Assembly: GCA_964633125.1 (NCBI GenBank)
Contig: CAZWDN010000003.1
Coordinates: 1-57,101, forward strand
DNA length: 57,101 nt
Direction of reading: 5' to 3'
Source: an uncultured Pirellula sp.
Lineage (GTDB): Bacteria > Planctomycetota > Planctomycetia > Pirellulales > PNKZ01
Part shown: positions 37,308 to 42,531 of the stretch, one piece after another
Layout: each line of letters begins with the position of its first letter
How positions within the stretch are numbered: position 1 is the first letter of the stretch
Made by a program: the position numbers and the translations under genes
Notes under the pieces: generated by a model
The model's database searches: none
What the model saw: the letters and a program-made list of their open reading frames with translations, nothing else
What the model was told of the DNA's origin: nothing

Positions 37308-38507
37308 TTAGAAACTCGTTTCGCCGCGGAGCATCAGCGTATCGGCAGGGTCGAAGCCCGGATACCCGCTGCTGAATTCGATCGAACGGTCGAAAACCCA
37401 GCCGAGTTCGAAGCGCGCGTTGAGTCCGTGCGGAACTTTCCGCTCCCAGCCGACGAGCAGCCGAAGATCGGCGTAAGTCATCTTATCGGGAATGTCGCCG
37501 GGACGATCGATGGCCCACGTGTTTCCGCCAAACTCGCCGCCGACGTAGACCCAATGCTCAAGTTCACCATTGACGTACGTACGCAGGTAGGCTCGCGGCC
37601 GCGGAACGAGGATATCGAAGCGTCGATTCTCCGACGGCTTCCAAATGATGCCGCCGACGGGCACCGCGAGAAAATCGCTTCGGCCCAGATAAAGCCCGCC
37701 GACGACGACCTGCACGGTCTCCGTCCAGTTCCACGCCGCCAGGGCGCGCCCGGTGATGCGCCAAGCATCGCTGGAGTCGTTGTTCAAATCGCCGAAGTAA
37801 CTGGGAGCGATGGCCAAGTCGATCCCCAAACGCGGAGTCGCTTGCTTAAGGTAGCGAAACTCCAATTCGTAATCGCGCAGTTCCGACGGCACCGGCGCCT
37901 GCCCCGGTCCGTCGGTGAAATGCGCCGTGAAGGTCGGCGTAAAGAGAATGGGAGAACCTTTGATAAACGGCGGCAACGCAAACGTGAACTGATGCGAAAG
38001 TGAGGTCATGCCGAACCCGTCGGCGCCGAAACGCGGCAGGTAGGTGGCGCGCCCGAGGCTCTGCTGAAAGATGCCCGACTTTGCGCCGGGCGGAATATAG
38101 GTCGGCCGCAAACTGAACAGCGGAGCCGGAGGCGGCTCGGCGAGGAGCGTCGGTCCGGAGGGTTGCGGAACGGCGTAAGGGGGCAGCGGCACCAACTCTT
38201 GCTTGCCTTCGGCCGGCGGATTGAGCGAAATCAGTCGGGGCGTGACTTCCACCGGAGCTAGGCCGAGCAACGACGCGGGAGTTCGCGACGCAATGGCCTG
38301 AGCATCGCGCGGGGCGTCGTACCGGCTCGGCAAATTAAAGAAGGCGGCATCGCCGGCCGCGACGTCTTCGCGCCACGCGGAATGGGTCGGAATGGCCGTC
38401 GGCGGCCCGGAAAGTTGCGCTATTGCGAGGTCGCCGATCGCAATTTCCAAGAAACAGCAAGCCGCGGCAAACCATACTTTCGCCGATCGAAGAACGCCCG
38501 CGTCCAT
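37308..38507 (-). CDS. Planctomycete outer-membrane beta-barrel protein (DUF6268-like)
   Basis: Signal peptide, Pro-rich linker, amphipathic beta-strand pattern, C-terminal Phe. Confidence 0.6.
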   Translation of the reverse strand: MDAGVLRSAKVWFAAACCFLEIAIGDLAIAQLSGPPTAIPTHSAWREDVAAGDAAFFNLPSRYDAPRDAQAIASRTPASLLGLAPVEVTPRLISLNPPAEGKQELVPLPPYAVPQPSGPTLLAEPPPAPLFSLRPTYIPPGAKSGIFQQSLGRATYLPRFGADGFGMTSLSHQFTFALPPFIKGSPILFTPTFTAHFTDGPGQAPVPSELRDYELEFRYLKQATPRLGIDLAIAPSYFGDLNNDSSDAWRITGRALAAWNWTETVQVVVGGLYLGRSDFLAVPVGGIIWKPSENRRFDILVPRPRAYLRTYVNGELEHWVYVGGEFGGNTWAIDRPGDIPDKMTYADLRLLVGWERKVPHGLNARFELGWVFDRSIEFSSGYPGFDPADTLMLRGETSF

Positions 38508-38521
38508 ACTTCACCGCCTGC

Positions 38522-39745
38522 TCAGTAGGTGAAGCCGGTGCGAATCATGACGCTATCGTCGGGAGAGACGGAAGGCTGGCCGCTGAGATACAGAATGTCG
38601 CGGTGGAAAACGTAGCCGATTTCCGCGTGGGCACGGAGCCGAGGCCCCGTTCCTTCGACGCCGATGTAAATCCGGTAATCGTTGTAGTTGATGACGTCGT
38701 GTGCGCCGTTGGAGTGAGCGATGGACCACTGACCGCCGCCGTACTCTGCTCCGAGATAGCCCCAGATATCGTAGTTGTTCCAATTGGCGACACGTTGCGC
38801 CAGCTTCGGCTGGGGAAACAACAGTTCGAAGCGAGCGTCGTCGTGCGGTTTCCAGATGAAGCCGATGGCCGGCAGAATCTTGACGTTGAGCCGATCGAGA
38901 TACACAACGCCCAATACGCCTTGCAACTGCGGACTAAACGTCCATGTGCCGACGCCGCGCCCGAGAATACGCAGGCTCGTATGATCCGTGTAGGAGAAGT
39001 CGGAATAGACGCCGAGGCTCAAGGCAAGATCGGCGCCGAGTCGCTCATTGAACTGCGGCTTCCAGCTGAGTTGGCCGTAAGCGTCGTACACGGTGGGAGG
39101 AATGTCCGACGCGACCGGCCGGTTCGGTCCTTGAAAGAAATGGAAGTTAAAGCCCGGTGTAAAAAGAATCGGCGCCATGTTCGGGTTTCCGAAAAACGGA
39201 AATGCCAACGAGGTCATGAGGTCGAGGTCTTGAACGCCGAACGCATCGTTGCCGCCGCCGCGATTGATCCAGGTATAGCGCATGCCGATATTTTGAAACA
39301 GGCGCGTTTGCGGCGCAGTCCAATCTTGAAACGGATAGCCGAGTTGCGGCTGCGTCGGCTGTGTGCCGTAAGCGGGGAGCGCCGGTGGAGGGGCTGAGGT
39401 CGAACCCGGCAACGCGTAGGGATCCCATGTCGGCGCGAGCGACGGCGGAGCGCTATAGGGGGACGTGCTGAGCGACGGTGCGCCCGTGTTGGGCGCAAAC
39501 GTGCTCGCGGCGGGGGCAGGAGTCGTAAACGGATTCGCGGGTGAGGTCGTCGGAAACTGCACGCGCTGCGCGGCGGCCATGGGACAGATGACGAGCAGAA
39601 CGACCTTCATGATTCCGGCGACGATCGTCGCTCGGCACAACATCGGCGCGCGTCGACGCACGATCAGCTGAACCAGATTGCGTACGGGTACGCGCATGAG
39701 GGTGTCGTGTGCGAAATGGAGAGCCGCCCAAACGGCGTCGCCCAT
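38522..39745 (-). CDS. Planctomycete outer-membrane beta-barrel protein (DUF6268-like), paralogue; true start may be 39697 or 39643
   Basis: Same motif series as its neighbour (G.IWKP....RF....P.P, W.Y.G.E.GG..W.I, Y.D.R...G.E, D..M.R.G..aromatic). Confidence 0.6.
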   Translation of the reverse strand: MGDAVWAALHFAHDTLMRVPVRNLVQLIVRRRAPMLCRATIVAGIMKVVLLVICPMAAAQRVQFPTTSPANPFTTPAPAASTFAPNTGAPSLSTSPYSAPPSLAPTWDPYALPGSTSAPPPALPAYGTQPTQPQLGYPFQDWTAPQTRLFQNIGMRYTWINRGGGNDAFGVQDLDLMTSLAFPFFGNPNMAPILFTPGFNFHFFQGPNRPVASDIPPTVYDAYGQLSWKPQFNERLGADLALSLGVYSDFSYTDHTSLRILGRGVGTWTFSPQLQGVLGVVYLDRLNVKILPAIGFIWKPHDDARFELLFPQPKLAQRVANWNNYDIWGYLGAEYGGGQWSIAHSNGAHDVINYNDYRIYIGVEGTGPRLRAHAEIGYVFHRDILYLSGQPSVSPDDSVMIRTGFTY

Positions 39746-39958
39746 AAACTTTGCGGAGCAGGAAAGTTGGGGCGATTTAGATAATGGCGACGCACGTTTC
39801 GGTCAAGATCGACCGCCCATCACGGCCGGATTTGGCGACCTCGCCAGGGTGCCGTAACCGCGGCAAAACGCTGGCTCGAATCAGTAAGTTCCGTTACGAT
39901 AGCAGGCCTGTGCCGGCACTGACTGCCGCACGAATTCTTACTTACTAAAGGAGCATGG

Positions 39959-40609
39959 ATGACGACGGACCAAATCGCCGCCGATGCCGCTGAAGGGACC
40001 CCGCTCTCCGATATGCAAGCTCGCAAGAAGATCATCCGCGAGCAGGCCCACGCGGCCCGTAATGCCCTGCCGAACAAGGATGAATTGAGCCAGGGGATCT
40101 GCGAAAAGTTCGTCGCCCTGCCCGAATACGCCGCCGCTAAGACGGTGATGTATTACGTCGACGTCCGGAGCGAAGTTCGCACACGGCACTACCTGGCAAC
40201 GGCTCTGACGCACGGCAAGCGGATCGTGGTGCCCTATTGCGTCGACGGGGAGCTGGAACTGTTCCTGTTGGAAGACATGAACGAATTGGCCGTCGGCATG
40301 TACAAGATTCTCGAGCCGCGAGTTGAGCTGCGCGACCTTCCGGCCAAGAAGATTCGGCCCGACGAACTCGATCTGATCATGGTGCCGGGCGTCGCATTCG
40401 ATCGTCGCGGCGCCCGCACGGGTCACGGATTCGGGTACTACGACAAGCTGCTAGAACACTCGCGGATGGATTGTCCGCTCGTGGCCTTGGCATTTGAATG
40501 CCAAATGTTTCCGGAAATCCCGACGATGCCGCACGACATCTTCATGGACAAAATCATTACGGAATCCGCCGTTTACGAACGGCAAATTCCCGGCCGTCGT
40601 GGCGAGTAG
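39959..40609 (+). CDS. 5-formyltetrahydrofolate cyclo-ligase family protein
   Basis: EVRT, YKILEP, DLIMVPGVAFD..G.R.G.G.GYYDKLL and HDIFMD.IITE motifs. Confidence 0.92.
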   Translation: MTTDQIAADAAEGTPLSDMQARKKIIREQAHAARNALPNKDELSQGICEKFVALPEYAAAKTVMYYVDVRSEVRTRHYLATALTHGKRIVVPYCVDGELELFLLEDMNELAVGMYKILEPRVELRDLPAKKIRPDELDLIMVPGVAFDRRGARTGHGFGYYDKLLEHSRMDCPLVALAFECQMFPEIPTMPHDIFMDKIITESAVYERQIPGRRGE

Positions 40610-40692
40610 CGCGGTCGATTGTTCAACAGCCTCGGGTATACGCCCGAGGCTGTCGATAATCCAAGGTTTTCGACGTGGATTGAGGCAGCAAC

Positions 40693-41634
40693 ATGAGCGA
40701 CGAACGCTTCCAACGCTTGGTCGACGACACCTATGCCGAGGCCTTCCGTAGCATCTACGCGGAGGTACTGATCACGGCTCGCGATCGCACCTGGCTCGAC
40801 CACGCGGTACAAGCGGCGACGGGTAACGCCTCGAGCACGATTTTCTGCGACTGCGAAGCGGGGCTCGATCGCTACGTCGGCCCCGGCGGCGATGAATCGT
40901 TCGCCACGCCCGACGGCCGCCCCGGAGCGATCGTGCAATTCCACGTTCCACGCTTTCACAAAGATCGGGCCGCGAGACTCGAGCGTTCGTTGTTGGTGCG
41001 GCTGAGCCAGAACGTGCTCACCTGCCCGACGGCCGCGTGCTTCAACTTGCTCGACACGGAAGAGTATTTCAAGCTCGGTCGCAAGATTGCGTTCTTCGGC
41101 GACGGCCACCAAAAACGAGCCGTACGGCACGGCCGGCGAGTCTGGGTGATTCCGATTCTCGGCGGCGAGTTCATGCTCGACCGGCGCTTCGGCTTTCGCG
41201 ACGGTCTCATGGGAGGCAACGTTTGGTTTTTCGGCGATTCGGTCGATTCGGCCCTGGATGCGGCCTGCCGAGCACGTGATGCTGCGGCAGCAACGCCGGG
41301 CGTCATCCTGCCGTTTCCCGGCGGCATTGCCGGAAGCGGTTCGAAAGCCGGGAGCCGCTATTCGTTTTCTATCGCCAGCACGTACGCCGAATTCTGCCCG
41401 ACGCTGCGGGAAGAACTCGGCGAGCGCTCCAAGCTGCCGGCCGGAGTCGCTAGCGTGATGGAGATCATCCTGAACGGTCGTGATTTACCGACGATTGCCG
41501 AGGCGACGCGCCGCGCCGTGGAAGCGGCCCTCGACGCGCCGGGCCTGGTTCGAATTTCCGCAGGCAATTACAGCGGCCGTCTCGGCAAGAGCTTCATCTA
41601 TCTCTACCCGGAACGCCAACTCGCTGCGACATGA
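40693..41634 (+). CDS. ftr: Formylmethanofuran:tetrahydromethanopterin formyltransferase (Ftr/FhcD)
   Basis: DDTYAEAF, TPDGRPG, QNVLTCPT.A.FN, FGDG, PFPGGI..SGSK.GS.Y, EI..NG and ISAGNY.G.LG motifs. Confidence 0.93.
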   Translation: MSDERFQRLVDDTYAEAFRSIYAEVLITARDRTWLDHAVQAATGNASSTIFCDCEAGLDRYVGPGGDESFATPDGRPGAIVQFHVPRFHKDRAARLERSLLVRLSQNVLTCPTAACFNLLDTEEYFKLGRKIAFFGDGHQKRAVRHGRRVWVIPILGGEFMLDRRFGFRDGLMGGNVWFFGDSVDSALDAACRARDAAAATPGVILPFPGGIAGSGSKAGSRYSFSIASTYAEFCPTLREELGERSKLPAGVASVMEIILNGRDLPTIAEATRRAVEAALDAPGLVRISAGNYSGRLGKSFIYLYPERQLAAT

Positions 41635-41666
41635 CGCGAGAAGCGAGTTTGTCCTCTCGCGATAAG

Positions 41667-41695
41667 AGTCCCTTCGCTTGCGCATCGGGGCTAGT
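41667..41695 (-). repeat. Intergenic REP-like arm related to the 99-bp intragenic element
   Basis: Reverse complement actagccccgatgcgcaagcgaagggact matches the first 29 nt of the element at 26/29 positions. Confidence 0.7.
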
Positions 41696-41763
41696 ATATT
41701 GTTGCCGGCCGTGTCACGTGTTCAGCAGTCCGCAGTCCGCAGTCAGCATTCCACACTTTCTCC

Positions 41764-42531
41764 ATGCTTCTTGAACCGCATCGCCTGCGTCTGCCGGAGT
41801 TCATCTCACGCGTCGAATATGCGCAAACGCTCGATTCGACGAACGATGCGGCCCGACGATTGGCAACGGAGTTACCGCTAGGCACGGCGATGCTCATCGT
41901 CGCCGAAGAGCAAACCGCCGGGCGCGGGCGCGGGGCCAATAGGTGGTGGACCGGTGCGGGCAGCCTGGCCTTCAGCGTGCTTTTCGACCCCGGGCGGTTT
42001 CGTATCGAGCCGCGTTACACGGGCATGGTTCCGCTAGCCGCGGCGCTCGGCATCGTCGACGTCGTCACGCGACGACTCGGCAGCCCGGCCGTCGGAATCC
42101 ATTGGCCGAACGACGTCTTCATCGGGCCGCGCAAGCTGGCCGGCATCCTCGTGGAAGCCTTGAGCGACGGCAGGCAGATCGTCGGCATCGGACTTAATGT
42201 CAACAACTCCGTCGCCGCGGCTCCGTCGGAAGTGTCGCAAATCGCCGCGTCGCTCGCCGACGAACTCGGCGAACTCCTCGACCGCACGGAGTTGCTCGCC
42301 GAGTTGCTCGAAGCGATCGACGTCTACTTCGCAGCGCTCGGCGGCCAGCGCGAACGCTTGGCCGCCGAAGCCGATGAAGTATGCCTGCAAAAAGGCCGGG
42401 CTCTCACGGTACAAGCCGGCGACGATAAGACGACGGGGCTTTGCGCGGGAATCGCCGACGACGGCGCGTTGATTCTGGAAACTCCCGCCGGCACGCGCAC
42501 GATCTATTCCGGCGTCGTACTGAAGACGTAG
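41764..42531 (+). CDS. birA: Biotin-[acetyl-CoA-carboxylase] ligase without N-terminal HTH
   Basis: DSTN, AEEQTAGRGR..N.W, WPND, KLAGILVE, GIGLNV, and C-terminal GIADDGAL motifs. Confidence 0.9.
   Translation: MLLEPHRLRLPEFISRVEYAQTLDSTNDAARRLATELPLGTAMLIVAEEQTAGRGRGANRWWTGAGSLAFSVLFDPGRFRIEPRYTGMVPLAAALGIVDVVTRRLGSPAVGIHWPNDVFIGPRKLAGILVEALSDGRQIVGIGLNVNNSVAAAPSEVSQIAASLADELGELLDRTELLAELLEAIDVYFAALGGQRERLAAEADEVCLQKGRALTVQAGDDKTTGLCAGIADDGALILETPAGTRTIYSGVVLKT

Follow-up and report, generated by a model that had tools for sequence, protein, structure and literature searches.

A conserved gene pair of a 5-formyltetrahydrofolate cyclo-ligase and a second class of formyltransferase suggests a formyl-level link between the methanofuran/tetrahydromethanopterin and folate one-carbon branches

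A 57,101-nt stretch of DNA from an uncultured Pirellula sp. (assembly GCA_964633125.1, contig CAZWDN010000003.1, positions 1 to 57,101; hereafter the window) encodes on its forward strand a 5-formyltetrahydrofolate cyclo-ligase (5-FCL, or MTHFS; 39959..40609) directly followed by a paralogue of the formyltransferase Ftr/FhcD (40693..41634), which we call FTR-B. The conservation, phylogeny and gene contexts of these two genes suggest that they form a conserved operon linking the methanofuran/tetrahydromethanopterin (H4MPT) and folate one-carbon (C1) branches at the formyl level. The mechanism that we favour, tentatively and with slightly less than even confidence, is that FTR-B formylates N5 of tetrahydrofolate (THF) and that 5-FCL, using ATP, turns the product into methenyl-THF.

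Both genes were assigned with profiles. The 5-FCL (216 aa, ATG start) scored 128.8 bits against PF01812 and 142.6 bits against the equivalog model TIGR02727 MTHFS_bact (cut-off 84.9). FTR-B (313 aa) matched the two Ftr lobes above their curated cut-offs (PF01913, 145.1 bits; PF02741, 156.4 bits) as well as NF002554 (318.3 bits, cut-off 297), and narrowly passed the fhcD model TIGR03119 (300.2 bits, cut-off 292.6). The 5-FCL stop at 40609 and the FTR-B start at 40693 leave a gap of 83 bp on the same strand. An earlier note, made from the sequence alone, had described a cyclo-ligase and an ftr gene that are co-oriented and 83 bp apart, and this description proved correct, with both families matched by profiles.

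The source genome (5.9 Mb in 682 contigs, 95% complete, with a contamination estimate of 1.2%) has two Ftr-family genes. The better-scoring copy is a canonical FhcD on another contig (C357:3341-4234), to which FTR-B is 44% identical. Among 41 genomes of the same order, drawn from 24 families, FTR-B (67–100% identity to that of the window) occurs in 26, and the canonical type (41–50% identity to the FTR-B of the window) in almost all. In the Ftr tree, FTR-B forms a clade with a long stem and short inner branches, supported at 99% in the Shimodaira–Hasegawa-like approximate likelihood ratio test (SH-aLRT), and lies outside another clade (98% support) shared by the canonical FhcD of planctomycetes and gammaproteobacteria. 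FTR-B is represented by one full-length sequence (69% identity) among 1.84 billion representatives of clusters at 50% identity, and the next full-length sequences in that set reach at most 48% identity. In public annotation, FTR-B is labelled plain Ftr.

Judging by its retained residues, FTR-B still looks like an enzyme. When 82 FTR-B sequences were compared with 48 canonical Ftr/FhcD sequences, 55 of the 65 columns conserved in the canonical proteins were identical in FTR-B, and the catalytic glutamate is kept (E257 in FTR-B, corresponding to E245 of MkFtr and E252 of FhcD) and is invariant in 36 FTR-B copies. This glutamate stabilises the oxyanion (PMC6926001). Within FTR-B, 133 of the 313 positions are at least 95% conserved. 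A canonical arginine (R22 of MkFtr; 47 of the 48 sequences) is replaced by Glu24 in 98% of FTR-B, conserved inserts are specific to the clade (H84, P86-R87-F88, K90 and R92, and also G63-P64-G65), and there are new conserved arginines at positions 30, 130, 142, 145 and 164, together with C-to-N107 and M-to-T272 changes. As speculation, the added positive charge could suit a polyglutamate tail, either of folate or of methylofuran.

Aligned end to end, FTR-B scored 222–232 bits with archaeal Ftr (232 to 1m5h) and 174 bits with FhcD of Methylorubrum extorquens (6s6y_D). It has the two lobes and the catalytic glutamate of archaeal Ftr (EC 2.3.1.101; PDB 1ftr/2fhj/2fhk, 1m5h, 1m5s) and is likewise free-standing, not encoded with fhcABC, but differs in forming a separate clade, in carrying Glu24 in place of R22, in its own inserts and in always having a 5-FCL gene in the genome. 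FhcD of the M. extorquens FhcABCD (6s6y) is a member of the same family, and both occur in bacteria with H4MPT-linked formaldehyde oxidation; FTR-B, however, coexists with a canonical FhcD that groups with proteobacterial FhcD at the 98% support given above. None of the best 80 public FTR-B loci, which made up our public sample, had fhcA, fhcB or fhcC nearby. The fhc gene order says little in this respect, because C1 genes tend to be dispersed in planctomycetes and the canonical fhcD of the source genome is likewise unlinked.

The pairing with 5-FCL is widespread. In 25 of the 26 order-level FTR-B genomes, a co-oriented 5-FCL gene lies directly upstream of FTR-B; in the exception, G032, the two genes are on different contigs. 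In 70 of the 80 public loci, a 5-FCL gene precedes FTR-B on the same strand, at a gap of 11–479 bp in 69 of them and of 1.5 kb in one. The ten remaining loci include two that end at a contig edge, and most of the others are from Gemmataceae or Zavarzinella. Cultured carriers are a Schlesneria strain and Zavarzinella formosa, the latter with the two genes unlinked. The earlier note had treated the adjacency as meaningful and proposed its conservation as a check; on both samples (69 of the public loci in the second) its conservation is strong, spanning families, orders and two phyla, and the two genes have apparently moved as a unit.

FTR-B depends one-way on 5-FCL. Five exceptional genomes in which the genes are unlinked each have one 5-FCL elsewhere, and a 5-FCL is present in all 36 FTR-B genomes tested (26 order-level, five gammaproteobacterial and five unlinked). 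Among the 15 order-level relatives that lack FTR-B, ten carry no PF01812 gene; 5-FCL is therefore dispensable in this order, except where FTR-B occurs. Since the genomes are related, these counts overstate independence, but the pattern still recurs in separate lineages. Nine of the ten PF01812-negative relatives have a completeness of 94% or more, and a closed genome is among the ten. The pattern is consistent with a product of FTR-B that requires 5-FCL. N5-formyl-H4MPT, if it were that product, would not need 5-FCL, since 25 of the 26 order-level FTR-B genomes have Mch.

On the evidence of its sequence, the cyclo-ligase is canonical, and the odd member of the pair is the Ftr paralogue. Its best solved relatives are YqgN of Bacillus subtilis (1ydm), the proteins of Bacillus anthracis (2jcb) and Aquifex aeolicus (1sou) and human MTHFS (3hxt), and its PGVAFD...GxGxGYYD block aligns with the solved MTHFS structures. 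Residues K23, R27, P143-G144-V145, F147, G155, G157, G159, Y160, Y161 and D162 are invariant in 36 copies from the pair; we take the N-terminal K...R and the PGVAFD...GxGxGYYD motifs to be the nucleotide/folate active site of 5-FCL. In passing the equivalog model, in its colinearity with solved structures such as 1ydm and 3hxt, and in retaining the N-terminal K...R and GxGxGYYD, the protein resembles ordinary MTHFS (EC 6.3.3.2), and only its context differs: here 5-FCL is locked to FTR-B and is absent from many relatives without FTR-B. A specialised, neofunctionalised 5-FCL clade was considered and ruled out. In the 5-FCL tree, the clade of the pair also holds seven 5-FCLs of Methylococcales and the G032 copy, all of them unlinked; with the Methylococcales proteins inside it, the cyclo-ligase is not a specialised lineage. 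The earlier note had proposed looking for mch and a second 5-FCL in the genome: one mch was found, on another contig (C157), and a second 5-FCL is absent, the protein of the window being the sole PF01812 member.

The pair also occurs outside the planctomycetes. Gammaproteobacterial metagenome-assembled genomes (MAGs) account for 14 of the 80 public loci, two of them from Methylococcales; several other gammaproteobacterial records are 1.8–2.7 Mb in size, are filed as chromosomes and are labelled Thiotrichales, Chromatiales, 'Ca. Porisulfidus' or 'Gammaproteobacteria bacterium'. Single FTR-B bins labelled Methylomirabilis, Vicinamibacteria and Deltaproteobacteria are possible binning errors. The five gammaproteobacterial genomes searched each have a canonical FhcD, one Mch, FTR-B and exactly one 5-FCL, that of the pair. 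Among 61 Methylococcales sampled, FTR-B occurs only in G043 and G044, which were the seeds of the sample, and 5-FCL occurs in 41. In both the 5-FCL and the Ftr trees the gammaproteobacterial copies nest within planctomycete diversity, and the two trees have odd placements in common (L078; the pair of L085 and L091; L040 and L048 near the base). FTR-B of the window shares 70–72% identity with that of the gammaproteobacteria, compared with 49–52% for canonical FhcD; within the planctomycete family the two proteins diverge at similar rates. Because of the shared tree placements and the higher cross-phylum identity of FTR-B than of FhcD, our reading is that the pair was probably transferred as a unit.

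In G041, a closed gammaproteobacterial genome with the pair on a 2.0-Mb chromosome record, a row bounded by ilvD and argE starts with 5-FCL and FTR-B and continues with an aminotransferase (BhcA/Sga-like), a CitE/malyl-CoA-lyase-like protein, the beta (mtkA, 687 bits, cut-off 604) and alpha (mtkB) subunits of malate-CoA ligase, a glyoxylate/hydroxypyruvate reductase-like protein (hpr-like), phosphoenolpyruvate (PEP) carboxylase and an Mpt_N (MtdA/MtdB-type) dehydrogenase. A block of sga, mcl and mtkA follows the pair on its 3' side in 10–11 of the 14 gammaproteobacterial loci. In L080, 5-FCL and FTR-B are followed by folD with overlapping stop and start codons, and in L093 folD lies between FTR-B and sga. 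In one Methylococcaceae MAG, the next gene after FTR-B encodes MfnB, a methanofuran biosynthesis enzyme. Neither formyltetrahydrofolate synthetase (FTHFS, the formate–THF ligase) nor Fch (PF04961) was found in the three genomes tested with serine-cycle or folD contexts, namely two with the serine-cycle row and the 'Ca. Porisulfidus' genome, in which the pair lies on chromosome-scale records of 1.9–2.1 Mb. The two Methylococcales that carry the pair have both FTHFS and Fch.

From the gene identities, paralogy, adjacency, 5-FCL dependence, joint phylogeny and contexts, which are direct results, we infer the substrates, direction and physiological role as follows. With formyl-methanofuran/methylofuran or N5-formyl-H4MPT as donor, FTR-B would formylate N5 of THF. 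The 5-formyl-THF so formed would be a thermodynamic dead end that returns to metabolism only through 5-FCL, to our knowledge the only enzyme known to metabolise it. ATP-driven cyclisation by 5-FCL would then give 5,10-methenyl-THF, from which FolD or MtdA would make the methylene-THF used in the synthesis of serine, purines and related products. The two enzymes would do the job of formate–THF ligase plus Fch at equal ATP cost and without free formate. THF as the pterin substrate of FTR-B would be the simplest account of the existence of a second Ftr, its dependence on an otherwise ordinary and often dispensable 5-FCL, its presence only alongside the H4MPT pathway and its placement with folD and serine-cycle genes where FtfL and Fch are missing. 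A coupling of the folate and methanopterin C1 pools, one of the options raised in the earlier note, is the reading that the evidence favours. In its full form, which we hold more tentatively, FTR-B may be a formyl-methanofuran (or formyl-H4MPT):THF N5-formyltransferase that, with 5-FCL, makes a formate-independent, ATP-driven bridge to methenyl-THF with 5-formyl-THF as a true intermediate, replaces FtfL and Fch in some serine-cycle bacteria and provides an assimilatory outlet for planctomycete H4MPT genes.

The closest functional parallel is the FtfL, Fch and MtdA route of M. extorquens, whose serine-cycle cluster reads sga-hpr-mtdA-fch-mtkAB-ppc-mcl. The gammaproteobacterial pair holds the place of fch in such an operon, beside sga, mcl, mtkAB, hpr, ppc and an MtdA-type gene, and its proposed net role is the same, one ATP being spent to take a formyl-level C1 unit to methenyl-THF. 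The enzymes of the pair are unrelated to those of that route, however, the proposed intermediate would be 5-formyl-THF and not 10-formyl-THF, and the proposed donor would be a cofactor-bound formyl group, whereas FtfL uses free formate.

Other C1 genes of the source genome are dispersed. FhcA is encoded on C205 (718 bits) and FolD on C30, and the canonical FhcD gene on C357 adjoins an extracytoplasmic function (ECF) sigma factor. Directly after mch on C157 (L006, 3644-5574) lies a gene for a RimK-type ATP-grasp protein, a candidate methanopterin/methylofuran glutamate ligase, and past it follow an AMP-binding enzyme, an epimerase/dehydratase and a ketosynthase. The genome also has two full-length FTHFS genes (C1:31304-32959 and C121:4334-5986). 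FTHFS was not found in four of five congeners or in 38 of the 41 order-level genomes, and the two copies could be a recent acquisition, a duplication or bin contamination.

Several observations weigh against THF as the substrate of FTR-B. With two FTHFS genes in the source genome, the pair is not needed there as a substitute for FTHFS. At the level of the order, FTHFS occurs in three of the 41 genomes regardless of the pair, a distribution that is uninformative for an anticorrelation; no anticorrelation between the pair and FTHFS is seen, because FTHFS is rare with or without the pair. FTR-B was found only in genomes with the H4MPT pathway, and the planctomycete loci have no folate or serine-cycle neighbours, the downstream gene in the window being birA-like. 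No fused 5-FCL–Ftr protein was found among longer proteins (one unrelated match) or among the best 120 matches of near length, although this search is weak evidence only. Nearly all canonical positions are kept, so that FTR-B may be an ordinary Ftr isoenzyme, and we know of no precedent for THF as a substrate of any Ftr-family enzyme. Finally, the furan cofactor of M. extorquens is a tightly bound prosthetic group of Fhc, about 97% of it protein-bound (PMC6926001). A free formyl-methylofuran pool for a free-standing enzyme is therefore doubtful, and FTR-B may need a formyl-H4MPT donor or docking on Fhc.

In an alternative reading, the two enzymes would share no intermediate, 5-FCL salvaging the 5-formyl-THF that arises as a side product of serine hydroxymethyltransferase (SHMT), FTR-B acting as an ordinary free-standing Ftr isoenzyme on formyl-methanofuran and H4MPT, and the pairing reflecting C1 co-regulation or inheritance and transfer as a block. 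Each protein scores above the curated cut-offs of its canonical family, the 5-FCL looks like a housekeeping enzyme, and the absence of folate neighbours from the planctomycete loci fits. 5-formyl-THF inhibits SHMT, and in serine-cycle bacteria a high flux through SHMT would be reason enough for a 5-FCL gene in the operon. We nevertheless consider this explanation unlikely, since neutral adjacency is not expected to persist across many families and three planctomycete orders and through a transfer to gammaproteobacteria. It does not account for the contrast between the 36 of 36 FTR-B genomes with a 5-FCL and the two thirds of FTR-B-less relatives that have none, and it leaves unexplained why a second Ftr, with a conserved insert and changes of its own, stands beside FhcD.

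The earlier note had put forward a different role, that of an ATP-driven formyl-H4MPT cyclase. In this reading FTR-B would make N5-formyl-H4MPT from formyl-methanofuran and 5-FCL would cyclise it with ATP to methenyl-H4MPT, which would circumvent Mch irreversibly and draw flux towards reduction. The two enzymes would then act on consecutive N5-formyl-pterin intermediates, and FTR-B does keep the Ftr catalytic glutamate and most conserved positions and occurs only in H4MPT-pathway genomes. A comparable activity on 5-formyl-H4MPT was speculated for the 5-FCL homologues of folate-free methanogens (Kaster et al., 2011; PMC3087415), and ATP could, we suppose, offset the unfavourable formation of formyl-methanofuran from formate. 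Such a cyclase would, however, be redundant with Mch, which interconverts formyl- and methenyl-H4MPT without any ATP and is present in 25 of the 26 order-level FTR-B genomes and in all five gammaproteobacterial genomes, with a possible futile ATP cycle as the consequence. The 5-FCL itself is ordinary: it is the sole, canonical copy, in the same clade as the 5-FCLs of Methylococcales without FTR-B. The gammaproteobacterial contexts, with folD and the serine-cycle operon, are folate-dependent, and methylene-H4MPT made reductively has no evident bacterial use. With Mch present and the 5-FCL ordinary, we regard a formyl-H4MPT cyclase as quite improbable and do not favour it. Very improbable, finally, is the reverse direction, in which FTR-B would shift formyl groups from 5-formyl-THF to methanofuran/H4MPT for oxidation as an ATP-free clearance beside 5-FCL: the Ftr reaction is near equilibrium (~4.4 kJ/mol; PMC6926001), enzymes consuming one metabolite are often co-encoded and the planctomycete H4MPT pathway is thought to be oxidative (PMC5020050), but FTR-B would then be redundant with 5-FCL instead of dependent on it, and it would be unexplained why FTR-B and 5-FCL open assimilatory serine-cycle operons where the genome lacks FTHFS and Fch.

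Near-identical DNA occurs in metagenomes from sludge, wastewater, digesters and bioreactors in at least eight studies. Four RNA libraries (sludge and biofilm metatranscriptomes) contain contigs that map to both genes, at low depth, and the gene parts that these contigs leave uncovered are uninformative. One RNA-library contig of 377 nt (~97% identity) covers 40359-40735, from the end of 5-FCL through the spacer and 43 nt into FTR-B. This contig is a weak hint of co-transcription of the pair, weak because DNA carry-over is not excluded. A complex prediction for two FTR-B chains with 5-FCL, from 36-row alignments, scored 0.00 and is no evidence either way.

Direct reading of the sequence also identified possible expression signals around the two genes. 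A Shine–Dalgarno-like AAGGAG (39948..39953, forward strand) lies 5 nt 5' of the 5-FCL start codon, and in the intercistronic spacer of 83 bp (40610..40692, forward strand) a GAGG lies 8 nt ahead of the FTR-B ATG. The spacer also contains a hairpin with a perfect 10-bp stem and a 6-nt loop (40627..40652, forward strand). A terminator and promoter scan of 39600-41900 scored no such site inside the spacer. The full hairpin is present once in the genome, which rules it out as a dispersed element of the repetitive extragenic palindromic (REP) kind. The hairpin recurs in the closest relative (L019, 3912-4000), where a compensatory change affects both arms, and the spacers of L020 and L021 differ from that of the window. 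The hairpin may serve in mRNA processing or stabilisation.

Downstream of the pair in the window, the birA-like biotin ligase gene is followed by a convergent gene for an E2 acyltransferase. On the 5' side, at 37308-39745 on the reverse strand, lie two tandem outer-membrane-like paralogues of about 400 aa each with Pro/Ala-rich N-terminal regions, one of them with a weak DUF6268 match. Transporter genes were seen near the pair in other genomes. An unrelated ABC exporter pair lies 3' of FTR-B in several planctomycete loci, and ABC-transporter genes flank the pair in several gammaproteobacteria (L048, 5012-7597; L079, L081, L084, L089 and L095, ~270-1360). The gammaproteobacterial set consists of a PBP_like_2 binding protein, a permease and an ATPase with a TOBE domain, of the tungstate/molybdate/phosphate type.

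The survey of Ftr-family proteins also turned up unusual members. G025 (97% complete) has FTR-B, 5-FCL and Mch, and a search with FTR-B as query gave no canonical FhcD match; this reflects either an assembly gap or FTR-B as the only Ftr. P0052 (34% identity; L146, 4001-4909, and L147, 371-1279) is a distant Ftr homologue in a weakly supported sister group of FTR-B. Its gene in L146 comes just after purD and a gene with no Pfam match, and in both L146 and L147 the next gene encodes a PfkB-family kinase, a context that hints at a further non-canonical role for the Ftr fold, perhaps purine formylation. Neither P0052 nor P0123, another relative in the sister group, has a 5-FCL neighbour. Fusions were found among proteins of the canonical FhcD type: P0025 joins an Amidohydro_3 (FhcA-like) segment to Ftr domains that follow it, and in P0055 Ftr domains are followed by a GXGXG (FhcC-like) segment.

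Full-text searches that combined cyclo-ligase with methanopterin, formylmethanofuran or the serine cycle found no paper on the pair, and reviews of planctomycete C1 genes mention neither a second FhcD class nor the cyclo-ligase. How C1 units cross between the methanopterin/methanofuran and folate branches is a central question of methylotrophy, for which the textbook route is free formate and formate–THF ligase, and the role of H4MPT genes in non-methylotrophic planctomycetes has been in question since 2004. A conserved pair that moves horizontally, a second Ftr with a 5-FCL, supplies a concrete hypothesis on this crossing, one that lends itself to direct tests on two small soluble proteins. 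If it held, C1 biochemistry would gain a new reaction, and metagenomic matches to 'ftr/fhcD' would need another reading, because FTR-B is currently annotated as an ordinary Ftr.

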